Numbered from the stretch's first letter, positions 31,991 to 61,466 are shown. The stretch is 64,000 nucleotides of DNA from Scenedesmus sp. PABB004 (GCA_014905635.1 JABVCE010000033.1:186001-250000), one strand, 5' to 3'. Notes: generated by a model from the letters alone, not told the origin. Made by a program: numbers and translations.

Positions 31991-32442
31991 CGGCGCCGCC
32001 GCCGTCTGCTGCTGCTGCGTCGCGCCGCGCCCCTAGCGCTGGCGTGCGCCGACGGCCGCGCCGCCGCGCATGTGACAGGGGGCTGCCGCACTCCCGCGAC
32101 GGCTGAACGGGCGCGCGGGCTGTGCGCAGGGCAGCGCCGCGAGCGAGCGCCGCTGCCGCCGCCGCGGCCTGCGTGGCGAGAGGGCCTGCGCGGCGGGCCG
32201 GGGCTGCTGCCCGCTGCTGCTGGGTGCGGTCGGCGCGCGCGCTGAGCCGCCGAGCCGCGCTGCGGCCGCGCGTCGCCGCCGCCGCCGCTGCTGTCGCGGT
32301 CGCGTGTCGCGTGGAGCAGGGCGCGGCCCGCGTGTGTTCAGCGGGTAACACGTCTCCAGCAGTGAGCGTCAGTCAGTTCTGTGGTCGGCGCCGCTTGGGG
32401 TTCACGCGCCAGTGCAGTGCCGCCGCGTGCAAAAACCCGGTC

Positions 32443-33478
32443 TCAGGCACCGTGCGGCACGGTGACGGGCGCGAGCGCGCTGCGCAGCAGGGCCTCCTGC
32501 TTGCTGGTGAGGCTCGCGCTCATGCCCTCGCCCTTGTCAACGTCGAGGTAGGTCAGGCTCAGCCGCACGTTGTGCCCGGCAAAGGAGATGCTCATGCCGT
32601 CCACCACCTCGTCCAGCACGCTCAGCATCAGTGTCATCACATTGACTGCGACCGCCCGGTCGGGCGGCGGCGGCGGCGGGCGCGGCTCAGCGCGGGCCGG
32701 GCGCAGGGGCCGGGACCCGTGCGACGTCAGCGGCGCGCTCTGCCGCCGCCGCGACCGCGACCGCGCGCGGCGCAGTGCTGCTGCGCGTGCGGGCCGCCGG
32801 CTCACAGTAGAGCATGCGCTCGAGGGGGTCGGGCAGCCACCAGATGTTGACCTCCTTGTTTGAGAGCATCGAGTCAACCATGCCCAGAATGACAGCCTTG
32901 TTGATGCCCTGCGGCCGCGTTGGACGAGGCAGCGTCGGCTGGGGCGGCCACGTGCCGTGCGCGCGGCCGCAGCGGCCGCAGCGGCACCCCAGCGCGCGCG
33001 CCTTGGTGAAGCGCAGGCGCATGCTCTTGTACGCGAGCGGCTCGAGCTTGACGAGCAGCTGCTGCAGCTCCTCCACCTTGCCGCGCAGGGCCGCGTTCTC
33101 CAGGGACGTGGTGTCCGAGTCGACCGACTGGCGCAGGTTGGCCTCCGCCGCCTTGGAGATCGCGAGGCCGGCGACCACGCCCACGGCGCACACGAGCGCG
33201 AGCGCCCACCACGGCCAAGCGCCCAGGCCGCCCAGGAAGGCCGCCACGGCGCTGCCGGCGCCGCCCAGGGCGCCGCCGGCCGCCGCCACGGCGACCGGCC
33301 CTCGCGGGCGCGGCGCGAGCGGACGCGGCGCGAGCTGGCGCGGCGGCGCCGCCCGCTGCTGCTGCTGCTGCCACCGCTGAGCGCGCGCGCACGGGAGCGA
33401 CGTCGAAAAACACGCGGTGAGGCAGCGCGGGGCTGCGGCGACGGCGCACGACCGCGCCGGCGCGGTCGCGGCCCGCAT
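32443..33478 (-). CDS. Hypothetical organelle-targeted membrane protein (transit peptide, TM helix, short coiled coil, conserved-looking C-terminal domain)
   Basis: MRAATAPARSC... presequence, WPWWALALVCAVGVVAGLAI helix, LENAALRGKVEELQQLL. Spliced C-domain LRFTK|GINKAVILGMVDSMLSNKEVNIWWLPDPLERMLY|..ISFAGHNVRLSLTY. Confidence 0.75.
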
Positions 33479-33730
33479 GCCGCGCGCTGTCGAGTCCGGC
33501 CCGCGCGTGCAGGGGCTGCGGAGGTCTGGCGTGCCCGCGAACGTCGTGAGTAAGCTTTGTAAAAGCAAATGGAGACGACTTGGAGACGAGGGGGACGGGT
33601 TTTCGAGGGCGGGCAACGGGCGAGCGCGCGAAAGCCCGGGCCGGCGCAGGTGCCAGCCCCCGAGCTGCGCCGACGCGACGAGGAGCTCAAGCGGGACTCA
33701 AAGGCGAGCTCAACAAGCTCGCGAGATCGG

Positions 33731-35044
33731 CGCACCTCGAGGTCGAACAGCGCGCTCGGCGCGCGGCGGTGGGCGGCCCGCGCGGCCATTCCTTGGCCGA
33801 AACGCCCCCGCTGCGCGTGCGGGGCGCCGCCTCGCGCGCGCCCGGCTGGGGGATGGGAGACCCAAACCGCGCGCCACCCGGCGCCGGGTCCTGGCGGCGG
33901 CGCGGCGCGGCCGCAGGGCGGGCTGCTGGCGCGACGCGGGCGGGCCGGCTGCGTCGTCGGTGTTGGTGGCGCGACCGAGCGCGCGGCGGCTGGTGGGGTG
34001 CTGTTGTGCGCCGGGGGCGAGCTGTGGGGAGGGGGAGGCGCGGCACGGCGGCTTTGGGGCGCCGGCAGCAGCAATCACAGCTGCCCGGCCAGGTGTCAGC
34101 CGCGTCTGACTCGCGACCACGCGCCGCCGCAGCGCCGCCCGTCACGTTGCACCGCCCTGCTGCGAACCCGCGCGCCTGCACCGGTCCTTGCTGGCGCAGC
34201 TAGGCGTGCGCGGGGCCCAAACTCGCCAACTCAAAAATGTGATGCCCGCCGAGCCGTTCCGCCGGCGCGCCACGCACGGGCGTGCAGCCGGGCGCCGAAC
34301 AAGGCCGGAGCGGCGCCGCGCGGGCCCCACACGCGCGCCCCGCGCCGGCCGTCAGACGCGCAACTGCGACGCGGGCCAGCCCGACGCGGCCGGCCCGCGC
34401 ACGGCCGCGCGCACCGCGCCGCGCCTGAAGCCTCGCGCGCCGCCACGCCCCGGCTGCCGCGGCGCGCGCTCTCGCGCGGTGCGGGCGGGCGGGCGGGCCG
34501 GTCAAGGCGGTCAAAGGCGCACGCCCGCGGCCGCCAGGTGCGCGTCCACGCCCGCGGCGGGGCGCCGGAACAGGCGGCCCAGGTCCAGGTCCAGGCCGGC
34601 CAGCGCGTCCGCCCGGCCAGCGCCGCCGCGCCGCGACGCCGCCGCTGCGGCCGCGAGCGCGGCAAAGTGGGCGTCCCCTGTGAGCGCGGCAGGCGGGGTG
34701 AGTCAGGGCGTCAGGCCCCGGGCGACGCCGCGGCCCCCTCGTGACGCGCGGGCGCCCCCGCTGTCAGCTGCGACGCGCGCACCCGCCACCAGCCAGCGGC
34801 CCACGGCGCCCGACGCCAGGCCCGCGGCCGCCTGCGCCGCCAGGCCCGGCTGGCCCGCGCACGCGGCGCCCAGCTGCGCCGCCCGCGCCGCCACGCGCGC
34901 GGCGTCCAGCGCCAGCAGGCGCGGCGCGTGCAGCACGGCGCGCCGCAGGCAGGCGTCGCCCCCGCCGCCCGCGGGTGGCCGCTGCTGCGCGCCGACGTCG
35001 GCGCCGGCGGCGGCCGCGACTGCGGCGCTGAGCTCGTCAAGCGC
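33731..35044 (-). repeat. Left arm of 1.3-kb inverted duplication (partner 39278-40587)
   Basis: Reverse complement of 39278-40587. The 1314 vs 1310 bp length difference equals one 6-bp deletion plus one 2-bp insertion in the right arm. Confidence 0.96.
33736..33789 (-). pseudogene. Orphan duplicate of DUF506 gene exon 1 (MAARAAHRRAPSALFDLE) with its GT donor
   Basis: Same sequence as 40529-40582 in opposite orientation. Homology stops 5 nt into the intron. Confidence 0.8.
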
Positions 35045-38000
35045 CGCCGCCAGCTGGCCCACGCGCTCGGCCAGCTTTTGCCGGCGGTGTCCGAGCAGGT
35101 GCGGCGCGCTGCGCACCAGGCGCTGGAGCTCGCTGTCCGTCAGCGCCAGCTGCTCCTGCAGCCCCGCTGCCGCCAGCTCCAGTGCGCCCGGGGACAGCGC
35201 GAGCGCGCTTTGCAGGTAGCCAGCGCTGTTCAGGCCGCGGCGCAGGACCTGGGCTACGCTGGTGCCGCCGAGCGCTGCCAGCGCAGACAGCCGGGCCAGG
35301 CCCGTCTCGGGCCGCATGGTGAGCAGCTGCCTGCCGGCCTTGGTCTGCAGGCACGCGGCCAGCAGCCGCTGCCCGCCCGCCTGCTCCTGCCCCCCATTTG
35401 CAGCCAGCTGCTCCTGCTCTGGCGCCCGAGCCACCCCCTGCTCCAGCTCCAGCTGCTGCTGGTGCTGCCGCTTGATCTGCACCAGGCGAGCCATGGCTGC
35501 CACCTCGCCGGGCTCGTACGCGTCTGCCGGCAGGTTGACGGCCGCGCCGGGCCCCCGCACCGCCAGGCGCACCAGGTCGAAGGCGCAGGCAGCCTGCAGC
35601 GCCGACGCATGGCTGCTTGTGAAGAGCTTGCCGCCGGCGTACACCAGCTTGCTGCGCATCTCCCACGCCCGCCACTTGCTCTTGCGCACGCCCCTGGTGC
35701 CGTGGGCGACCGCGCCCCGAACGGCCGCCCTGGCGGCTGCTGCTGCCACAGCTGCCACAGCCGCCGCCGCCACCGCCGCCGCCGCGTCGGGCTGCTGGTG
35801 CAGGCGCCTGCGGCTGTCGCGAACTGCTGGGGGCGTCGGCGCCAGGACGGGCTCCGCCGCAGCAGGCGACTCGTGGTCGGCTGACAGAGCGGCCTGCAGC
35901 GCCGCCAGCTGCGGCTCAAACGAGCCGGCCCCTGCCTGTCGCACGAGCAGCAGCACCTGCGCGGGTCGTGCGAGCCGCAGTCAGCTCGCATCGCGCGCAG
36001 CACGCAGCGCTGTCAGCACGCAGCGCTCCCAAGCACGCGAGGAGCGCCGCACCCACCTTGGGCTCCTGCAGCACCAGCCGCCGGGCCACGTCGGCGCCCA
36101 CGAGCCCCGCCAGCTCTCCCGTCAGCTGGGCAATGGTCGGCGTCTGCAGCAGCAGCAGCTGCGGCGCGCGCAGCGCTAGCCGGCCCGCCTCGCCCGGCGC
36201 CAGTGCCAGCGCGGCCTCCAGCACGGCCAGGCGCTTGCGGCAGGTGTCGACTTGCAGGTGGGCAACCTGGACGGCGCGAGTGGGCGCGCACATGTGGGCG
36301 GGCGCCACGGCGCGGTGCGCAGCGCGGCGACGCCGAGGCCCCCCCCCCTCACCCATGGGCAGCGCTTGAGCATCCGCATGACCTCAGGCGACAGCACCGT
36401 CGCCTCCTGCTGCGCCTCCTGCTGCGCCTCCTGCTGCGCCTCCTGCTGCGCGGCGTGGCGCTGCGCGCCGCCGCCGCCGCGGCCGAGCAGGCCCTGCAGC
36501 GCGCCGAGCCTGATGTGGCTGGTCAGCTCGTCGCGCAGCGCGCCACCCGCCGACCACCGCACGAGGCGCGCCACCTCGTCCTGCGACAGCCCGCGCATGC
36601 TCACGAGCTTGCTCGCGCGCGCCAGCACCACCTGGGCCGGCTTCAGCAGGGTGAACAGGCCTTGTCGGCGTGTGGTGAGCTCCAGCTCTGGAGCCGGCGC
36701 CGGCAGGGCGCCGCAGGCGGCGGCGGCTGCCGCGCCGCCCCCGCGGCGCGCCCCGCGAGAGCGCGCCGCCCGCCTCGCGGGCGGCTGCAGCAGCTGCCGC
36801 ACGAGCGCGGCTGGGCTCGCGGCGCCGTAAACCGCCGCCGACACGCGCAGCGAGGCCACCACGTCGTCCACGCTCGCGCTGCGCACCACGGCGTGTGCCG
36901 AGCACAGCAGCAGCAGGTCGGCCGCCGTCAGCGGCGCCTCGTCGCCTGCGGCGCGCCGCCGTCGGTCAGCGCGCGCCGGCCAGCAGCCGGCGCAGCGCGC
37001 CCGCACACGCAGCCGGCCCGCGCGCCGCCTCACCCGCGAGCGCGTTGCGCAGCCGGGAATACGTGTCGGCCAGCGCGGCAGCGCTTGGGTAGCGCAGCAG
37101 TTGCGGCCGCGCCAGGAGGCTGGGCAGCAGCTGCTGGAGCGGCAGGCCCAGCGCGCCCGGCGCCGCGGCGACAAACGCCTCGGTGTGCGCCAGCTGCCGC
37201 GGCGTGCGCGCCAGCCAGGGGTGGCGCAGCAGCAGCTCCGCCGCGTCCGCGCGCTCGATCACGAGCGCCGCCGCGACGCGGCCCGCGCGCCCCAGCAGCG
37301 CCGCGCAGCTGCTGCTCACGAGCACGCCCGTGTGCGCCGCCGCGAGCGCGCGCGCGCGGCCGCGCTCCGGCACCAGCTCCGCGAGCGCCGCGAGGTGGCG
37401 CGCGAGCGCGCCGTCGGGCAGCCGCATCGCCTTGGTGAAGGTCTGGGTGTCGCTCAGCACCACGCTCGGCGGCGACATGCCCAGCGCCGCCTGGAACGTG
37501 GCGACGATGCTGGCGACCTGGGCGCTCACCTCCGGCAGGTCTGCGCGGCGGGCGCGGGGGCCGGCGGAGATGTGTGTGTGTGTGGGGGGGGGGGGGGGTA
37601 TCGGCGGGCCGGCGGCCGGGCGGGCCTGCCGGAGCGGCCGAGGCGGCGGCGCCAGCGCGCGCCGCCGCCGCGGCCGCGCACCCTTGGCCAGCACCTCGGG
37701 CGCGAGCTGCGTGTCGGGCAGCATGCGCCGGAAGCTCTGCGCCGTCGCGGCCGGCTGCTGCATCTGGGCGATTGCCGGCGTCAGCAGGTCGGTCGCGCGC
37801 AGGCTCGGGTGGTCGCGGCTCAGCTGCAGCGCGTGCTTGATCGCCCGCCCGAGCAGCTCCTCCGGCAGCAGCCGGCGCGCCACGCGCTGCACGGCGGCCT
37901 GGAGCACGTCCGCCGCCTCGGGCGTGTCGATGGTCACGCCCTCCCGCGCCAGCTGCTGCTGCAGCTGCTCCCGGCCGGCGGCGGCGCCGAGCCCGGCCGC

Positions 38001-38459
38001 GCCGCCGGCCGCCGCCGCGTCGCTCAGCAGGCCGGCGCCCGCGGCCTCAGCGGCCCGGCCCGCCAGCAGGCCCTCCATGCGCTGCCTGCGGCGCTGCCAG
38101 GTCGCCGCGCTGCTCTGGCGCGCCTGCGCCGGCTGCTGCTGCTGCTCGGCGCCGCCGCCCGCCGCGGCGGGCGGCGCGCCGCTGCCATCGCTGCCGCCCC
38201 CCGCCGCCGCCGCGCCGCGCGGCCAGATCGCCCGCGCGCCTGTGCCGGCGCCGTCCCGGACGATGACGCTGGGCAGCTCCGCCGCCGCGGCGCGGCCGCG
38301 CCGCCGCCCCGCGCCAGCCGCGCCGCCGCCGCTGCCCGGCGGCCCCGCCTCGCCGCTCGCCTGACGCGCGCACGCCGCCAGGCGCGTCAGCAGGGACGCC
38401 CAGGCGCCTGGCAGGCTGCTGGAGCTCAGCACCGGGCCGCCAGCGCACCGCAGCAGCAT
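34511..38459 (-). CDS. mTERF-like repeat protein containing an embedded AP2/ERF-like domain, organelle-targeted
   Basis: Repeated mTERF-type units (AELLLRHPWLARTP, SLLARPQLLRY, MLKRCP, LALRAPQLLLLQ, LVLQEPK, LVRSAPHLLGH, AVLHAPRLLALD). AP2-like block at 35516-35698. Presequence-like MLLRCAGG.. at 38459, though an upstream exon is possible (acceptor near 38577). Confidence 0.75.
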
Positions 38460-38797
38460 GCGCAGCTGGCGCGCGCTGCAGCGGCGGACGCGCGTCGCTC
38501 GCTCGCCGCTTGCTTCTGCTGCCGCGCCGCTTGCTGCTGCTGCGGCTGCTGCTGCGCTGCGGGCGAACGGCACACCTGCAGAACCGGCAGCAGCGCGTTA
38601 GTCGCAACAACGCGTCGCGACCGCTGCTGCGCGCTGCCGCCGCGCCTGCTCAAAGCGTCCTCCCGCGCTCCCTGCCGCAGCTCTCCCGCGGTTCCCAGGA
38701 GCGTCCACTGTCGTGACCGGCGTCCGAGCGCCCTGCGTCGCGCGCGCGTGGCAGCAGCGCCGCCGACCGTTCGAGCAGCGCCGCCGAGCGCCCGGCC

Positions 38798-39143
38798 ATG
38801 GCGAGCCCTCCCGGCGACCCCCTCCGCGCGCCCGCGATCCCGGGCGTGCACCTGGAGAAGCGCGACTGGGCGGCGGCGTGCCCGCAGCAGCACGTGGCGT
38901 GGCTGCAGTGCACGCTGCACGGCGGCAGCGCGTCCGTGGTGGCCTGCCAGGCCGAGCTCGAGGCGCTGCAGGCGTGCGTTAACGCCGTGAAGCCGCCGCA
39001 CCTGCGCGCGGGCGCGCCGACGGCGGCCGGCAACTGGTGGCGCGGCACCGGCGAGCCAGCGCTGCGCGACACGCTGGCCGCCGCGCGTGCCAGGGCGGCG
39101 CGCTGGCTCGGCGGGGGCGAGCCGGAGCAGCAGGGGCAGCAGG

Positions 39144-39189
<46 letters not shown>

Positions 39190-39205
39190 CGGGGGCGGCG
39201 TATAA
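38798..39205 (+). CDS. Small twin-CX9C (CHCH-fold) protein with C-terminal polyQ
   Basis: Single-exon 135 aa ORF in a GCCATGG context with C-PQQHVAWLQ-C and C-QAELEALQA-C, each exactly CX9C. Confidence 0.72.
39136..39188 (+). repeat. (CAG)n microsatellite encoding polyQ
   Basis: CAG run read directly. Confidence 0.9.
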
Positions 39206-39277
39206 ATCAATGCGACCGCGCCCGGCGGACGCGCCACGCAGCCGGGCGGGGCACGCTCCGTGGTGCAGCGGCAACGT

Positions 39278-39807
39278 GCGCTTGACGAGCTCAGCGCCGC
39301 AGTCGCAGCCGCAGCCGGCGGCGACGTCGGCGCGCAGCAGCGGCCACCCGCGGGCGGCGGGGGCGACGACTGCGCCTGCGGCGTGCCGTGCTGCACACGC
39401 CGCGCCTGCTGGCGCTGGACGCCGCACGCGTGGCGGCGCGGGCGGCGCAGCTGGGCGCCGCGTGCGCGGGCCAGCCGGGCCTGGCGGCGCAGGCGGCCGC
39501 GGGCCTGGCGTCGGGCGCCGTGGGCCGCTGGCTGGTGGCGGGTGCGCGCGTCGCAGCTAGCAGCGGGGGCGCCCGCGCGTCACGACGGGGCCGCGGCGTC
39601 GCCCGGGGCCTGACGCCCTCGCTCGCCCCGCCTGCCGCGCTCGCAGGGGACGCCCACTTTGCCGCGCTCGCGGCCGCAGCGGCGGCGTCGCGGCGCGGCG
39701 GCGCTGGCCGGGCGGACGCGCTGGCCGGCCTGGACCTGGGCCGCCTGTTCCGGCGCCCCGCCGCGGGCGTGGACGCGCACCTGGCGGCCGCGGGCGTGCG
39801 CCTTTGA
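39278..39807 (+). pseudogene. 5'-truncated, frameshifted copy of the mTERF-like gene 3' end
   Basis: No start. GACGACTGCGCCTGCGG versus GACGCCTGCCTGCGG in the intact copy (+2 frameshift near 39370). LDLG versus LDLDLG (6-bp deletion). Retains the last intron and stop. Confidence 0.85.
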
Positions 39808-40587
39808 CCGCCTTGACCGGCCCGCCCGCCCGCCCGCACCGCGCGAGAGCGCGCGCCGCGGCAGCCGGGGCGTGGCGGCGCGCGAGGCTTCAGGCGCGGC
39901 GCGGTGCGCGCGGCCGTGCGCGGGCCGGCCGCGTCGGGCTGGCCCGCGTCGCAGTTGCGCGTCTGACGGCCGGCGCGGGGCGCGCGTGTGGGGCCCGCGC
40001 GGCGCCGCTCCGGCCTTGTTCGGCGCCCGGCTGCACGCCCGTGCGTGGCGCGCCGGCGGAACGGCTCGGCGGGCATCACATTTTTGAGTTGGCGAGTTTG
40101 GGCCCCGCGCACGCCTAGCTGCGCCAGCAAGGACCGGTGCAGGCGCGCGGGTTCGCAGCAGGGCGGTGCAACGTGACGGGCGGCGCTGCGGCGGCGCGTG
40201 GTCGCGAGTCAGACGCGGCTGACACCTGGCCGGGCAGCTGTGATTGCTGCTGCCGGCGCCCCAAAGCCGCCGTGCCGCGCCTCCCCCTCCCCACAGCTCG
40301 CCCCCGGCGCACAACAGCACCCCACCAGCCGCCGCGCGCTCGGTCGCGCCACCAACACCGACGACGCAGCCGGCCCGCCCGCGTCGCGCCAGCAGCCCGC
40401 CCTGCGGCCGCGCCGCGCCGCCGCCAGGACCCGGCGCCGGGTGGCGCGCGGTTTGGGTCTCCCATCCCCCAGCCGGGCGCGCGCGAGGCGGCGCCCCGCA
40501 CGCGCAGCGGGGGCGTTTTGGCCAAGGAATGGCCGCGCGGGCCGCCCACCGCCGCGCGCCGAGCGCGCTGTTCGACCTCGAGGTGCG
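39278..40587 (+). repeat. Right arm of 1.3-kb inverted duplication (partner 33731-35044)
   Basis: See left arm. Contains a copy of the mTERF 3' end, the intergenic region and the functional DUF506 exon 1. Confidence 0.96.
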
Positions 40588-42560
40588 TTTCCCGGAACTG
40601 GGGCCCGCGGGCCCGGGCGCCTGCCCGAGGTGACGCGGCCGAACCGACCCACGCGGATGCGTCGAGACCCCGGCACGCGCCGCCGCCTCACGCCCCGCCC
40701 GCGGCGCGCCCGCAGCTGGACGCGGACCCCCACAGCGCGCCGGACGCCGTGGCACATGAGCTGCGCGGCCTGCTGGCCGCCGGCAGCAGCGCCGCACGCC
40801 TGAGAGTGAGCGGCGTGCGCGCGCCGCGCGCGCGCCGCGCAGCTGTACCGGCTCCTCGCGCATTGGGCCGGGGGTTGGTGCTGCACGGGCGCCGCTCGCG
40901 GGCAGCTGGCGCAGTGGCCGCGCGCGGCGGCCGCGGTCAGCGCGCGCGCGCGGTACGCAGGACCAACCGCACCGCTGGCGCCGCGCCGCCGCCGACGCCG
41001 ACGCCCGCCGCCGCCGCCGCCGCCCGCTTCTTCCGCAGCTCCTGCGCGACGCGGAGCAGGCGCGCGAGCTGGCGCTGGACGGCGAGGCGGTCGACCTGCA
41101 GACGTTTGCCGAGGTCCTCGCGTCGCGCGGGCACCGCGTCTGGCTGCGCACGGGCAAGCCCGACAAGTGCTGCTCCCACGTCGCCGTGCTGCGCCACACG
41201 TTTGTCGTCGCGGGCGTCGCACGTGCGCGGCGCAGCGGGGGGCGCGGCGCAGCGGGCGCGCGGCGCCGCGAGCGCTGCCGCTGACTCGCCGGCCGCCGGC
41301 CGCCGCCGCGAACGCGGACGCGCAGGCGCGGCCGCCGCGCAGCCGCTCGGCTCGTCGCCGGACAGCCCGCTGTCGCCGGCGGCGGCGCAGCTGTACGTGG
41401 TGGACCCGGCGTTTGCCGACAGCTTTGCCCTCGCCGCCTCGCCCGCCTGGTACCAGGCGCTCTGGGCTGCGCTGCCCGCGACCTTTGTGGGCAGCGCGGA
41501 GCAGATCGTGCCGATCGTGGAGCTCATGTGCACGCAGGTGCGGCGGCGGGGGGGGGGGGGGCTGCGCGCAGCGGCTGCGGAGCCTGGCAGCGGCAGCGCC
41601 CGCGCCTGCGGCTGGCGCCGGCGGCGCACCGCCCGCGCGCTCACGCGCCCCGCGCCCCGCGCGCCCGCGCGCCCTGGCGAGCAGATGCAGCTCGCGTTTG
41701 CCGAGATCGCCAGCAGCTGCCCGCCCTGGCGCCAGCCGGCCTGCATGCTCAGCAAGTGGCTGCCGGCCAGCGCGGACGACGTCCCGGTCGTGCCAGGCCC
41801 CAGCGTGCGCGCCGCCGACGCGTGCGCCGCCGGCGGCAGCTCGCCCAGCAGCGGCGCGCTCGCGCTCGCCGCGCCGCCGGGCGCGCTGCGCACGGTGGGC
41901 AGCGGCGGCAGCGGCGGCGCCAACAACGCCGCGCTCGGCCCGGAGCCGGCCTACACGCCCCGCGCCGCGCTGCGGCCCTTTGAGCGCAGCGACGCGAGCA
42001 ACAACCTGCTGCTCGCCGGCAGCGCCGGCGCGGAGGGCGCCGCCGCGGCGCTGCTCGCGGGCTCGCCCGATGGCGCGTTTGGCGCGCTCGCGTGCGGCAG
42101 CGACGAGCTGGTCTTCACCTTTGGCAACTACTCGCCCGACAGCTGGGGCGGCCGCGCCGGCTACCTCGGCGCGGCGAGCTGGGGCGGGCGCGGCGCCGCC
42201 GCCGCGGACGACGCCGCGTGCGCGGCCGCCGGCGGCGTCGCGATCCGGCCGACCGTGTCGGCGAGCGCGGCGCTCGCGAGCCAGATGGCGGCGGCGGCGG
42301 CGCGCCAGCGCGGCGCCGCCGCGCGGCCCGGCCCCGCCGCCGCCGCCCTGTCGGTGGGCGGCGGCCTCGCGCCGCTCGACATCCGGCGCCTCAACGCCGC
42401 GGTGCTGGAGGACGACGGCAGCGACCTGTTCAGCCCGCGCGCCGCGCGCGCCGACGCGGCGGCCGGCGCGCCGGCGCCGCACGTCGCGGTCAAGCGCCGC
42501 GCCGGCGGGCTGGCGCAGCCGAGCGCGCTCAGCGCGGCGCTCGCGGGCGGGCTGCCGTGA
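40529..42560 (+). CDS. DUF506 / PDDEXK_6 plant-type protein
   Basis: LRHTFVV, LYVVDPAFADSF....AWYQALWAALPATFVG, ELMCTQ|MQLAF....CPPWRQPACMLSKWLP (PPWR..SKW signature). Confidence 0.9.
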
Positions 42561-44272
42561 CGGCGGCGCGCGACGCGCGCCGCGCCCTGCACAGATTGTG
42601 CGCCTGTACTTGTGTGGGGAGCGCCGGGGGCCGCCCCGCGAGCGCTTGCAGCGTGCGCCTGACCCGCGCGCTGGCGTGTGAGCGACGAGGAGGCGGGCGC
42701 CGGCGCCGGTGCGCCGCGCGCCCCCGCCAGTGATCGATCGAGGGCCCCGCGGCCGCACGCGCGGGCGCCCCCGTCGCGTTGACACTAGTAGTAGCGTGTA
42801 GGAGGGCCTGGCGGGCGGGGGGCCTGCAGCGGCGCCGCCGTCCGCGGCTCTGGGCCATATGGATGGATGCGCGGCACGCGTGTGGCGCCGGCAGCGCGCG
42901 TGCCAGGGTTTGAGGCAGCGCACCAGTGCGCCGCCGGCGGGGCCCTCATTGGGCGCGCCGCGCGGCCGTGCTGCTGGGCAAGCAGCGCGCCCGGGGAGGC
43001 GGCGCGCGCTGGCGTGACTGCGCGGCCGCACTGCTCCGCGTATGCGCATGGTGGCGGCGGCTGCAGCACTTGGCGCCCCTGCATCGCCGTGCGCGCGCGT
43101 CCCGCCGCCCTCGGCGGCGGCGACGCGCGCGTGGCGTCCCAGCGGGCGCACGTGTGTGACGTGGGGGCCGCGTTTTGCTGTGTGTGCGTGCCCGCACGAC
43201 CGACGCAACGCGGGCTGCCGCCCTGGCAGCAGCGGCGCGACGCGTGCGCGTCGCGCAGCTGTGTCCAGGCTAGGCTGAACGCGCGGCAGGTGGTGCCCGC
43301 GAGGGCAGCCTGCGCGCGGGATGGATGGATGGTCGATGGTTCGGTCTGGCGCGTGTGGCGCGTGTGGGCATGGTCCGGTGTGTGCGAGCGGCGCCGTGCC
43401 GCGGTGCGGGTGTGGGTGCAGGCGTGGGCTGCTAGCTGCTTCTCAGAGCATTCAACGGCTGCCTGCCTCGGCCGGCCACCATTGAGGACGACCGCCCGTG
43501 ACTTGCCGGCGCGCCCGCGGCGTCCTCCTGCGCCGCGGGCGCAACGGTCCCTTTTTGCCGTCGCACGCGGCGCATTGCGCGTCGCGCGTCGTGCCCGACC
43601 CTCGACGCTAGCTAGGTAGCTCCTCTGACGCGCGTTCTCTAGTCTAGGCGGGCTGCTGCGACGCAGGTCCATCCATCCCATTCACGCAGGCATGGCACGG
43701 CGGCTTGGCTCGGCGCGCGCCCCGCGGCGCGGCGGCCGCGATGAATGCTGCCGCGGGGCGCGCAGCTCGACGACGGCTTGGCTTGGCTTTGGGGCCCCGC
43801 CCTGCGCTTGCAGGGACGGCGGCTTGGCCGGGCGGCCGCCCTCCACGCGGCGCCCACCATCACCTTTTTGCCAGCGGCGGGGGCCGAGGCGGGAGCAGGG
43901 AGCAGGGAGCAAGAAGCGCGGGTGCGCCGCGCAGCAGCTTGTCGGGGCGGTGTGCACAACACATATTCGGAAAGAGGCTGCCGCAGCTTTTGCTTTTGCC
44001 TGCGTGGACGAGACCTAGCGCACGGTGCGCGCGTGTGGCAAACCCGCTGCAGGGCTCAGCGCTGGCGGTTGGTGGTCCTGGGCTTGGAACGACCCGCAAC
44101 CTCTCACGCCCGCCCGCGAGCCAGCATCCCCCGAGCAGGCTCGCCGCAGCAGCAGGCGCAGCCGCCGGCAGCAGCAGCGGCGACCGCACGGCCAGCAGCG
44201 GGCCCGACAAGTCGCTGCTGCCGCGCAGGCCCCGGCGCCCGCTCGAGCGTGCAGGTTGCCCGCGGCTCGAGC

Positions 44273-58613: not shown

Positions 58614-61466
58614 ATGGCACTGACAGGACGATCACCTGGAGCGCCGCACGCCATGGCGCTGAGGGCGCACGGCAGCCTGGCCGCGCTGCACGGAGCGCCG
58701 CTGCAGCGGCCGCCGGCCGACGCGCCGCCCTGCACGGCGCGGCGCCCCAGCATGCCCGGCGCCCTCGCCCAGCGCCGGTGCAGTGGCGCCGCCGCGACCG
58801 GGGCCGGCCTGTACAGCCTGCTGGGCCCGGCGCGGGGCGCCGGCCTGCCGGGCGGCGCAGCGCTGCTGTCGGCGCGCAGCAGCGGGCGGCGCCTCGCCCC
58901 GCGCCTGCCGCCGGGCCTGGCGAGCCGCACCAGCGTGCGCACCTTCTCCAGCGGCAGCGGCGAGCCGCCCGCGCAGCCGCCCGCCGACGGCGGCGCGCCC
59001 GGGGGCGAGGCTGCGGGCAGGCCCGGCAGCGCCGGCGGCGGCAGCCCTGACGGCGAGCACGGCCACCACGGCGGCGAGCACGGCCACGGCGCCGAGCACG
59101 GCCACGGCGGCGCGCACGGCGCGGTGCACCAGCTGCAGCACCGCGCGGCGGAGAAAGCAACGTTCCAGTTCCTCGAAAAGGCGCGGCGCGGCGCGGCGCT
59201 GAGCGCCCTCCCGGGCGCAGCGAGCCGGGCGCCGCGGGGCCGCGAGCTGAGCGGCGGCGCCGCGCCGCGCAGGTGGCTGAGCGCATGACCGAGCGAGTTG
59301 GCGAGCGGGTGCGGCGCGCGCGGGCGCCGCGGCAGCGCCCGCGCCGCGCGCGTGGCCCACGACGCCGTCGCCGCTGGCTGCGATGCTCGCAGCGCGCCCG
59401 ACGCACGCCGCCGCCGCTGCGTGCACGCGCTGCGCGCAGGTCACTGAGCGCATCGCCGAGCGCGCCGGCGAGCGGGTGCGCCGCGGCTGCAGGGGCACGG
59501 CACGCAGTGCGCAGCGCGCCAGCCCCCGACGCCCCGCCGTGCTGCCGCCCGGGCCGCCGCAGGTGGCGGAGCGCGCCGGCGAGCGCCTGCTGGAGCGCGC
59601 CGGCGAGCGCGCAGTCGAGCGCGCGGCCGAGCGCGGCCTGGAGCGTGCGGCCGAGCGCGCGGCCGAGCGCGGCCTGGAGCGCGCCGCCGAGCGGGCGGCG
59701 GAGCGCGGCCTGGAGCGTGCAGCCGAGCGCGCGGCCGAGCGCGGCCTGGAGCGCGCCGCTGAGCGTGCGGCGGAGCGCGGCCTGGAGCGCGCGGCCGAGC
59801 GCGCGGCCGAGCGCGGCCTGGAGCGCGCCGCTGAGCGTGCGGCGGAGCGCGGCCTGGAGCGCGGTCTGGAGCGCGCCGCCGAGCGCGCGGGAGAGCGAGC
59901 GTTTGAGCGCACCGCCGAGCGCGCCCTGGAGCGCACCGCCGAGCGTGCCGGCGAGCGCGTCGTGGAGCGTGCTGGCGAGCGCGCGCTCGAGCGCGCCGGC
60001 GAGCGCGCAGGCGAGCGCCTGCTGGAGCGCGCCGGCGAGCGGGCGCTGGAGCGCACGGGTGCGCCAGCCTCGCGGCGCAGGCTGCGGCCATCTCTGTCGC
60101 AAGCTGCACGCTGGGAACCGGCGGCTCGCCGCCAGGCCGCCCCGCTCACACGCGCTGCCGCCCCGCCGCCGCAGCCGAGCGCACCGCCTCTGCCGCCGGC
60201 GCGCGCGTCGGCGGCCACGCCGCGGGGCGCGCCGCGGAGCGCGCGGGCGAGGCGCTCGCCGCGCACGGCGGCGACGTCGCCGCGGCCGCGGGCGCGCGCC
60301 TCGCGGGCGCGCACGGCGCGGCGGCCGCGCGCGGGCGGGGCGCCGTGGCTGGCGTGCTGGACAAGCTGGTTGACAAGCTCCTTGGTAGCGGACTCATGCG
60401 GCGCTTCGCCTCGCCCGCGGTGGGTGTGCCGGCGCGGCGGCGGCCCACTCGCGGCACGCCGCGGCCCCGCCGCACGGGCCCGCGCGACGCCGGTGCCGCC
60501 GTGCAGCGCCGGGGCCGCCGTCGCCGAGCCGCCGCCGAGCGGCGCCCGCCGCCCGCCGCCCGCCCGGCGCCCGCAGCTGATGTCGCGCATCGGCCGCGGC
60601 GCGCTGGTGGGGCTGCCCGCCGTCGGCGCGCTGTTTGTGGCGCACCTCGCACACCAGGACTGGGACCGGATGCGGGAGGAGCGCGCGGCGGGTGCGGCCG
60701 CGCTGGCGCTGGCGCCGGGCTCGCCGCCGCCTCGGCGAGCTGACCCCCCGGCCGCCGCCTGCCGCGTCTCGCTGCCCGCTGCCCGCGCGCCGCGCGCCAG
60801 GGAACCGGGCGTCGGCGGGCGCATTTGCGGTGGCGCTGCTCGGGGACGTGCTGGACGTGGCGGCGCACGTCGTCGTCGTCGCCGGCCTGCTGCACACGCA
60901 CTTCCAGGTGCGGCGGGCGGCGCGCGCGGGCGGCAGGGCGGCTGTCACCGCTGGCTTGGCGGCCAGCCGCGGGTGCTCGCCGCGCCGCCGCGCTCACCCG
61001 CCTGGCGCCCCGCCCCGCCCCGCGGCAGCTCGGTGTGCACGTCGATCACCACCTGCTGCACCTGGTCGAGCGCGGCGGGCTGCTGGTCGCGGCGGTGGGC
61101 ACGGTCGCGGCCACGCTCGGCGAGGTGCTGGCGGTGCGCGCGGCGCTGCGGGAGGAGCGCGCCGAGACCAAGGCGCGCGTGGAGGCGGCCGCGGCGGCCG
61201 CGGTGGAGGCGCTCGACGCGGCGGCGGCGGCCCAGGCCGAGCGGCCTCGCGATGGCGGCGGCGAGGCGGGGGCGGAGCTGGCGGAGGCGGCGGCAGAGGC
61301 AGCGGTAGATGAGCTGCACGCGGCAGCCGCCGAGGCGGAGGCGGCACGCAGCCTGGGCGGCGACGCCGGCTGGCGCTGGGACGGCGACGGCGCCCGCGGC
61401 AGCGGCAGCGCCGGCGCGCCCCTCCAGGCGAGCGTGGAGCGCAGCAGCAGCAAGACTGAGCTGTGA
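58614..61466 (+). CDS. Uncharacterised organelle-targeted membrane protein with His-rich segment and long ER-x-x repeat
   Basis: Presequence ending ..RTSVRTFSS, HGHHGGEHGHGAEHGHG, microexons 59273-59308 and 59440-59475, repeat exon 59563-60058, then about three hydrophobic helices (GALVGLPAVGALFVAHL, AFAVALLGDVLDVAAHVVVVAGLL, GLLVAAVGTVAATLGEVL). Confidence 0.8.
59563..60057 (+). repeat. Coding tandem repeat of 12-nt GAGCGNNNNNNN units (ERAA/ERGL/ERAG), higher-order 36-nt period
   Basis: About 40 consecutive ER-x-x units. The core is (ERAAERAAERGL)n. Confidence 0.95.

Follow-up and report, generated by a model that had tools for sequence, protein, structure and literature searches.

In the human Xq28 FLNA-EMD region, inversion recurs by non-allelic homologous recombination between long, near-identical inverted repeats. 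In the Drosophila melanogaster group, inversions that carry inverted duplications at their breakpoints are accounted for by a staggered-break model, and the outcome in which one breakpoint is duplicated is described there for 12 inversions, with duplications of 46 bp to ~1.9 kb (Ranz et al., 2007; PMC1885836). We describe here a locus within a 64-kb window (the whole stretch of DNA that was analysed) in which a 4.2-kb segment lies between two inverted 1.3-kb arms, and we propose, with a probability of roughly 0.65, that it is a fixed micro-inversion of ~5.5 kb in a very GC-rich, probably green-algal nuclear genome, accompanied by a 1.3-kb duplication of one breakpoint. The features on which the argument depends are as follows.

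32687–33478, minus strand: left-flank gene L; its ATG at 33478 and the outer end of the left arm are 252 nt apart
33731–35044: left arm (D'), with weak homology on to 35063
33731–34680: near-identical, apparently homogenised tract of the left arm (partner 39644–40587); 1 substitution in 944 aligned nt and a 6-bp indel
33736–33789, minus strand: orphan copy of DUF506 exon 1, 18 codons; ATG at 33789, last codon GAG at 33736
34511–38597, minus strand: large mTERF-like gene, also with an AP2-like domain; its 5' boundary, taken where the open frame ends, is approximate
34681–35044: diverged tract of the left arm (partner 39278–39643); 14 substitutions in 364 nt and a 2-bp indel
35045–39277: segment between the arms (S'), 4.2 kb, with the mTERF-like body (minus) and the twin-Cx9C gene (plus) divergently transcribed
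38798–39205, plus strand: small gene for a putative twin Cx9C (CHCH-like) protein; its CX9C profile match (E 0.066) is below the cut-off
39278–40587: right arm (D), with weak homology from 39259
39278–39807, plus strand: dead copy of the mTERF-like 3' end; intron copy 39542–39646, stop copy 39805–39807
40529–42560, plus strand: DUF506/PDDEXK_6 gene; exon 2 40716–40805, exon 3 41039–~41221, last exon ending in the stop at 42558–42560
40529–40582, plus strand: DUF506/PDDEXK_6 exon 1, functional copy (MAARAAHRRAPSALFDLE); intron from 40583, arm edge at 40587

The locus resembles the Xq28 region in having high-identity inverted arms around a short gene-bearing segment, in that the genes would be intact in both orientations, and in that the arms have apparently been homogenised by conversion. 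Its arms, however, are some 10 times shorter and are built from parts of the flanking and enclosed genes, and it is known from one assembled orientation, with no polymorphism or recurrence observed. The likeness to the Drosophila inversions (PMC1885836) lies in the structure: the arrangement L - D' - S' - D - R corresponds to the scheme with one staggered breakpoint; genic sequence that would have been ancestrally unique and non-repetitive is inverted at both ends of the segment; a single breakpoint region appears to be duplicated, its 1.3 kb falling within the reported size range; and, of the two copies of each gene part, one is decaying. In contrast to the Drosophila inversions, the block is tiny (~5.5 kb) and belongs to an alga-like eukaryote with 79% GC DNA, both breaks of the proposed staggered pair fall inside genes, the arms are 98.3% identical overall (99.9% in the outer tract) and sharply mosaic where the Drosophila mean is ~88%, and the inverted state is deduced from the layout.

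Extent and gene content of the arms

Aligned by MAFFT and by a base-by-base global alignment, 33731–35044 and 39278–40587 are reverse complements of each other, and together with a repeat search these alignments place the mirror-image arms almost to the base where the preliminary description had put them. All three pairs of inverted repeats of at least 100 nt in the window are pieces of this one arm pair: 33731–34589/39729–40587 (859 nt, given as 100% identical by the repeat search), 34582–34950/39374–39742 (369 nt, 97%) and 34949–35063/39259–39373 (115 nt, 89%; piece I3). The arm pair is the only long repeat within 64 kb, so that the region is neither repeat-rich nor transposon-rich, and a chance origin of the match is excluded. 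Sequence that is otherwise unique within the 64 kb and unrelated to transposons is thus inverted at both ends of the segment. The outer edge is sharp, with no homology above shuffle level found by local alignment beyond either arm edge (scores of 20 and 21, for shuffle means of 18.8 and 20.0 respectively). At the inner edge the alignment of the extra 19 nt (to 35063/39259) is poor, 6 of its columns being different.

Both arms contain the same unit, namely the last 1.5 exons of the mTERF-like gene with its last intron and stop, an intergenic stretch, and DUF506 exon 1 followed by 5 nt of intron. This content had been claimed in the preliminary description, as had the pairing of a working half with a dead one in either arm, and both claims are borne out by gene models based on codon periodicity, splice motifs and homology. 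The left arm runs on into the intact mTERF-like gene and the right arm into the intact DUF506 gene, while the second half of each arm is an orphan fragment; every copied gene part is therefore joined whole to its own gene in one arm and is a mere remnant in the other. In the left arm, read on the minus strand, the mTERF-like 3' end comprises a GT donor at 34782, the intron at 34678–34782, and the last exon at 34511–34677 with TGA at 34513–34511, and ~720 nt of non-coding sequence separate this stop from the copy of DUF506 exon 1. That copy preserves its donor GTGCG (33735–33731), ends exactly at the arm edge at 33731, and aims at the 5' end of the neighbouring gene with its ATG at 33478. In the right arm these parts recur on the plus strand, with GTGCG following exon 1 at 40583–40587. 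Ahead of gene L, the orphan exon 1 has an intact splice donor and there are in-frame acceptors downstream. At the other end of the segment, the Cx9C gene stops with TAA at 39203–39205, 72 nt short of the right arm, so its 3' UTR must extend into the dead mTERF-like fragment. The poly(A) signal TGTAA occurs between 32 and 43 kb as one plus-strand copy (33558) and is absent from the minus strand there, which is uninformative.

The codon periodicity of the mTERF-like gene reaches ~38350, and its frame is collinear across the inner boundary of the left arm with two homologues, P0001 (E 3.8e-58) and P0002 (E 3.1e-45). The copy in the right arm is cut off from the gene body, and its frame is shifted by a 2-bp insertion in the exon copy at 39374–39375, as the preliminary description had stated. 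Membership of the mTERF family, after which that description named the gene, is weakly suggested. Resemblance comes from the ESM Atlas, where mTERF is the first named cluster for residues 205–398 (score 0.90, 182 shared features) and the third for another part of the gene (0.86). In Pfam, on the other hand, the PF02536 gathering score is not reached: the five different minus-strand frames of the gene that were scanned gave no match at E up to 10, and the homologues score 18.1 bits (P0002, E 1.3e-3) and 10.2 bits (P0001) against a cut-off of 23.1. A profile search of PDB returned MTERFD2 at E 1.7–2.4, phmmer against PDB gave no relevant match, a word-index search with 36966–38360 found no homologues, and the AlphaFold model (mean pLDDT 49) is too poor for a fold search.

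The DUF506 label stands on firmer ground, since the gene exceeds the cut-off of Pfam PF04720 (39.1 bits against 25, E 1e-9), a profile that its homologues P0007 and P0009 match at 65.5 and 65.9 bits. Exons 1, 2 and 3 when joined are collinear with the N-terminus of the full-length homologue P0007 from residue 2 (score 249). The motif LFD[LIMC]E is found in five of the nine full-length homologues fetched (P0007, P0022, P0029, P0054 and P0093), P0038 has the near-variant LMFHLE, and three of the nine lack the motif. Judged by this homology, exon 1 in the right arm is the genuine, conserved DUF506 N-terminus, and in the sequence read there is no other in-frame ATG ahead of exon 2 or exon 3.

Mosaic divergence between the arms

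Between the two arms there are 15 substitutions and two indels, one of 6 bp and one of 2 bp. One substitution lies at 33799/40519 and the other 14 all fall within 34681–35015; the 6-bp difference at 34579–34584 is a slippage indel, the left arm having one CCAGGT unit more. The split between the outer tract (1 in 944) and the inner tract (14 in 364) is best placed at 34681 and gives a Fisher p of 1.6e-7; this point was picked after seeing the data, and allowing for ~1200 possible splits still leaves p near 2e-4. Seven of the inner differences lie in the 105-nt intron, seven in 262 nt of exon, and none in the 167-nt last exon, although the contrast between intron and exon is not significant alone. 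The differences are distributed as evolution would distribute them and not as sequencing error. Such sharply mosaic divergence points to later gene conversion between the arms, by which the outer tract would have been homogenised. Mutagenic repair synthesis was also considered as the cause of the inner divergence and rejected, the differences being densest in the intron and not beside the junction.

Proposed origin and competing explanations

Because the unit is collinear in both arms it must have been copied as one piece, and from this it follows that the mTERF-like 3' end and DUF506 exon 1 were once neighbours on one strand. Inversion of the segment together with the unit, with the unit retained, yields the present layout in a single step. 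We propose that the ancestral order was gene L (minus), the Cx9C gene (minus), the mTERF-like gene (plus) and the DUF506 gene (plus). A first break would have occurred 54–72 nt 3' of the Cx9C stop, and the second would have been a pair of breaks 1.3 kb apart, one in the penultimate exon of the mTERF-like gene and the other 5 nt into DUF506 intron 1. The 1.3 kb between the paired breaks would then have been copied onto both new ends, by staggered-break fill-in or an equivalent template switch, and the block rejoined upside down to give L - D' - S' - D - R. The copied unit would have kept both broken genes whole, each on a different arm, at the cost of leaving each arm with an orphan half. Afterwards, conversion from arm to arm may have homogenised the outer 950 nt while the inner 364 nt went on diverging, and the dead exon copy would have acquired its frameshift. 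A one-step staggered break, a two-step route and a replication template switch cannot be told apart. The staggered-break inversion put forward in the preliminary description is consistent with the layout in one step, whereas the tandem it placed at the start, with the mTERF-like gene directly upstream of DUF506, is a matter of logical deduction. Two metagenome scans yielded no orthologous locus showing that tandem: one with the mTERF-like C-terminal alignment gave 255 pattern-matching stretches, none of which was confirmed, and one with two homologues gave a single locus (L001, 47% GC) that matched in the AP2-like stretch only and in 0 of 7 other query pieces, and is useless for synteny. The homologues found in the mTERF-like and DUF506 searches were single-exon fragments.

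A different history, which we regard as unlikely, is that recombination between the arms continues, whether they were formed in a single step or an inverted duplication came first; the 4.2–5.1-kb segment would then be present in both orientations in the population or culture, and the assembly would record one state. In favour of this, 848 nt with a single mismatch lie inverted just 5.1 kb apart, and the near-identity of the outer tract would itself be a sign of recent exchange. From the layout we reason that a crossover in the near-identical tract would restore the tandem and leave the mTERF-like, Cx9C and DUF506 genes undamaged, in which case nothing obvious selects against either orientation. 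However, conversion without crossover accounts equally well for the identity of the arms, and the only sequencing runs listed with parts of the region are two sparse metagenomes, in which no contig bridges an arm. The preliminary description had added that a crossover internal to the 2-bp insertion would give the mTERF-like gene the frameshifted end. This is formally right, but the target is small, roughly 95–115 nt, and the stretch is 89% identical in piece I3 and, counted inside the arm proper, has 4 substitutions over 94 nt; with a crossover in the 848-nt stretch the intact exon would move with the segment and the coding sequence would be unchanged.

A more speculative and rather doubtful extension of recurrent exchange is that the arms form a neutral two-way switch in which all genes are intact both ways and the 'dead' halves are reused, selection on the borrowed parts together with conversion holding the outer 950 nt at 99.9% identity and the inner 364 nt, being of no use, left to decay. 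If so, the Cx9C transcripts would be ended by the last exon, 3' UTR and terminator of the mTERF-like gene, present there as a sense copy, and the orphan DUF506 promoter and exon 1 would serve gene L, whose ATG is 252 nt downstream on the same strand.

Long-read assembly is known to produce inverted duplications in error, and the second copy, or one of the novel junctions, could have come from a chimeric long read or a haplotype misjoin. We nevertheless consider such an artefact improbable. The 15 substitutions and two indels between the arms are clustered in an intron and a low-complexity exon, the 4.2-kb unique spacer is unlike a fold-back chimera, and the Cx9C 3' end lies beside the dead mTERF-like fragment, a junction that is absent from an uninverted haplotype and from a simple inverted one alike and that haplotype mixing would therefore not create. 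The two runs with matches are both freshwater metagenomes from one study, each with 0.05 of the sampled words, and neither is RNA. At 90% likeness they gave contigs of 150–356 nt from a relative 95–98% alike, along with many low-complexity matches from other organisms. One contig (X1 record 3, 33404–33748, ~95% alike) follows the L flank for 18 nt into the left arm, those 18 nt without mismatch, which falls short of the 31 nt set as the rule for bridging and is a weak hint against an artefact. Among the contigs listed from the two runs none bridges 35044, 39278 or 40587, and neither run contains a read or independent assembly that bridges either of the novel junctions (33730/33731 and ~39259–39278). 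The 'joints' listed in these data were disregarded, their sides being 20–24 nt and GC-rich or CAG-rich.

It is highly improbable that no inversion took place and that a copy of the 1.3-kb unit was merely placed, in reverse orientation, 4.2 kb from the original. Such insertions do occur, and the arms by themselves look the same in both cases, but the mTERF-like gene depends on the left arm for its last 1.5 exons and stop, and DUF506 depends on the right arm for its conserved first exon and start codon. The parts needed by the two genes sit in different arms, and hence a simple inverted copy-paste from an intact ancestor fails. An origin as a transposon or a fold-back element, with the arms as its long terminal inverted repeats, was rejected, as each arm is a collinear continuation of a host gene on one side, and a site-specific invertase switch is unlikely, the arms being 1.3 kb of genic DNA from intron-bearing eukaryotic genes.

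Significance of the rearrangement

Read as a micro-inversion with one duplicated breakpoint, the locus is a clean example of an already known kind of rearrangement and involves no new kind of biology. What it offers is a legible and compact case in which an inversion that would have broken two genes was made harmless, the breakpoint copy giving each of them one good end. A full-text literature search found no natural nuclear inversion with an inverted breakpoint duplication in a green alga. If confirmed, the locus would add a case from the very GC-rich nuclear genome of an alga to the staggered-break class, whose descriptions come mainly from flies and mosquitoes, and its near-identical arms of ~0.85 kb around a spacer of roughly 5 kb would provide a small natural substrate for measuring ectopic recombination and conversion.

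Gene content and the inverted repeat

A repeat search of 30-44 kb and of the whole window returned one long inverted repeat in three pieces, split by two small indels, and together with a base-by-base alignment of 33731-35044 (left arm, D') against 39278-40587 (right arm, D) it shows that the inverted duplication proposed in the preliminary description is real. All three pairs listed are pieces of these arms, and no other inverted repeat of at least 100 nt was found in the 64-kb window. The aligned arms are separated by 15 substitutions, by a 6-bp indel at 34579-34584, where the left arm has three CCAGGT units, one more than the right arm, and by a 2-bp insertion in the right arm at 39374-39375. 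The outer edge is sharp (33731 / 40587), the inner edge lies within 35044-35063 / 39259-39278, and no homology was found past either edge, where local alignment scores are at the level of shuffled sequence.

Features of the repeat and the adjoining genes (window coordinates)
33731-34589 / 39729-40587, inverted repeat, outer piece, 859 nt
34582-34950 / 39374-39742, inverted repeat, middle piece, 369 nt, 97% identity
34949-35063 / 39259-39373, inverted repeat, innermost piece, 115 nt
33478, minus strand, ATG of the left-flank gene L, 252 nt from the left arm
33789-33736, minus strand, orphan DUF506 exon 1 in the left arm
~38.6 kb down to 34511, minus strand, mTERF-like gene
34782, 34679-34678 and 34513-34511, minus strand, GT donor, AG acceptor and TGA of its 3' end, after the motif GRWL(V/A)xG (from splice motifs)
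35300-35760, minus strand, AP2/ERF-like stretch of the mTERF-like protein
38798-39205, plus strand, small Cx9C gene, divergent from the mTERF-like gene
40529-40582, plus strand, DUF506 exon 1, 18 codons (MAARAAHRRAPSALFDLE), followed by GTGCG

The G+C content of the window is 79%, with third codon positions of coding stretches at 0.9-1.0, and because open frames are present on all six frames the coding frames were located by three-base G+C periodicity and then by homology. TGTAA occurs once over both strands in 11 kb (32000-43000), and the whole-window search also revealed a tandem array at 59496-60100 with a 12-nt period (a 216-nt reference that recurs every 12 nt in at least 35 overlapping copies).

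The PDDEXK_6/DUF506 gene lies on the plus strand on the right side, and its label is supported by a Pfam match of 39.1 bits against a cut-off of 25. An exhaustive HMMER search gave 163 relatives at E up to 0.001; the N-terminal motif LFD[LIMC]E is present in five of the nine full-length relatives inspected, as the variant LMFHLE in one, and absent from three. When exon 1 is joined by script to 40716-40805 and 41039 onward, the product is collinear with the full-length homologue P0007 from residue 2 (HARAPSVALFDIELDD..., score 249), which marks exon 1 as genuine and conserved. The right arm stops exactly 5 nt into intron 1 of this gene.

The body of the mTERF-like gene lies in the 4.2-kb segment between the arms (S'), together with the Cx9C gene. 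Its frame 34787-35980 matches the homologues P0001 (E 3.8e-58) and P0002 (E 3.1e-45), both of which stay collinear with this frame past the inner boundary of the arm and as far as GRWL(V/A)xG. The name mTERF, as used in the preliminary description, is only a reasonable guess: five different frames of the gene gave no Pfam mTERF match at E up to 10. In the ESM Atlas, residues 205-398 have an mTERF cluster as their best named match (score 0.90, with 182 features shared), and for a second part of the gene such a cluster comes third (0.86). P0002 is sub-threshold against that family (18.1 bits versus a cut-off of 23.1, E 1.3e-3), and a profile of the three sequences reached chains of MTERFD2 at E 1.7-2.4. 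An AlphaFold model built on three sequences is of low quality (mean pLDDT 49). The AP2/ERF-like stretch (RGVRKSKWRAWEMRS...AAVNLP) is conserved in both homologues; the three-sequence profile matches WRI1 (E 6e-4) and ERF096 (E 0.094), and three strands and then a helix make up the only moderately confident part of the model there (residues 98-145). To find an AP2-like domain within an mTERF-like repeat protein is unusual.

Each arm carries one working and one dead half, as the preliminary description stated. In the left arm, the intact mTERF-like end is accompanied by the orphan DUF506 exon 1, which is followed by the same five intron bases and then by unrelated DNA. In the right arm, together with the real exon 1, the mTERF-like exon, intron and last exon stand on the plus strand, cut off from the body of their gene, and the 2-bp insertion forces a frame change between ...GGGGDDCA and LRRAVLHTPRLL.... 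The Cx9C gene, whose product has two Cx9C motifs (Pfam CX9C match below cut-off, E 0.066), ends in a TAA 72 nt short of this arm, so that its 3' UTR must extend into the dead mTERF-like fragment and is probably made of it (gene and fragment together 38798-39807, plus strand); this presumed UTR would include the copied intron, whose GT..AG is intact, together with the terminator copy. On the other side, the orphaned exon 1 of DUF506 and its 5' region face gene L on the minus strand with the donor GTGCG kept (33478-33789). Splicing to an AG acceptor at 33685 or 33664 would be in phase with the open frame of L, and promoter capture or a chimeric first exon for L is a possibility.

Uneven divergence of the arms

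The differences are concentrated on one side, with one substitution in the outer 944 aligned nt (33731-34680) and 14 in the inner 364 nt (34681-35044; Fisher p = 1.6e-7, the split having been picked post hoc and about 1200 alternative splits still leaving p near 2e-4). The best split, at 34681, is the 3' end of the last intron. The diverged part holds seven differences in the 105-nt intron and seven in 262 nt of exon, small numbers whose direction is that expected if one exon copy is still constrained. Our reading is that the duplication is older and that gene conversion recently homogenised its outer part. Repair-synthesis errors as the source of the inner divergence are rejected, since a burst of them should peak at the junction and the differences are densest in the intron. 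Selection by itself would not keep UTR and spacer, ~700 nt in all, at 99.9%.

Proposed origin by inversion with a duplicated breakpoint

The present order is L - D' - S' - D - R, where R is the right flank with the rest of the DUF506 gene; the mTERF-like gene requires S' and D', and DUF506 requires D and R. Both arms show the mTERF-like end, the spacer and DUF506 exon 1 in collinear order, and this unit (D) was therefore copied as a single piece, so that its parts must at one time have been neighbours on the same strand. The sole intact one-event ancestor would then be L - S - D - R, with Cx9C (minus), mTERF-like (plus) and DUF506 (plus), and we propose that inversion of S and D with retention of D would have produced the present order. 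A plain inverted copy-and-paste is excluded because both arms are needed by intact genes, and removal of either decapitates or truncates one. Three routes are indistinguishable from the sequence: a staggered break in one step, template switching during replication, and two steps, with an inverted duplication followed by recombination between the arms. The layout corresponds to the staggered-break outcome at one of two breakpoints drawn in Ranz et al. 2007 (PMC1885836), where inverted duplications are given for 17 of 29 inversions, with a single breakpoint region duplicated in 12 of the 17 and sizes up to ~1.9 kb. The interpretation given in the preliminary description is partly supported, inversion with duplication being the most economical model and fitting a described class. 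A long CAG run at 39134-39190, which encodes the glutamine tail of the Cx9C protein, lies ~70-90 nt from the right-arm inner edge, close to the inferred left breakpoint, and could be a fragile site.

Independent sequence and possible exchange between the arms

Two metagenome scans yielded no orthologous locus. The run search listed no RNA runs matching the region and two freshwater metagenome runs, both of the same study and each containing 0.05 of the sampled words. Metagenome contigs on 32.0-42.5 kb are short, cover several parts of the region and come from a relative with 95-98% identity, so that a near relative of the source organism seems to inhabit such freshwater, although the word share is small. 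One of these contigs (X1 record 3, 356 nt) spans 33404-33748; it starts in the L flank and ends 18 nt inside the left arm, its last listed difference being at 33697. Such an end is expected in k-mer assembly where a junction leads into a repeat. Because the 18-nt overlap is below the 31-nt bridging rule, it is taken only as a hint of the left junction outside the present assembly.

Over 848 nt the arms differ by a single mismatch, and homologous exchange between them is therefore plausible. The earlier suggestion that the mTERF-like gene would receive a frameshifted end from a crossover on the inner side of the 2-bp insertion holds from the layout, for a target of only ~95-115 nt that is 89% identical in the innermost repeat piece and has four substitutions over 94 nt of the arm proper. 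If the crossover fell in the 848-nt tract, the diverged inner parts would travel with the segment, the tandem order would be restored without damage to any of the three genes, and the dead fragment would come to lie beside L. We regard the locus as a neat addition, of moderate interest, to a known class of rearrangement.
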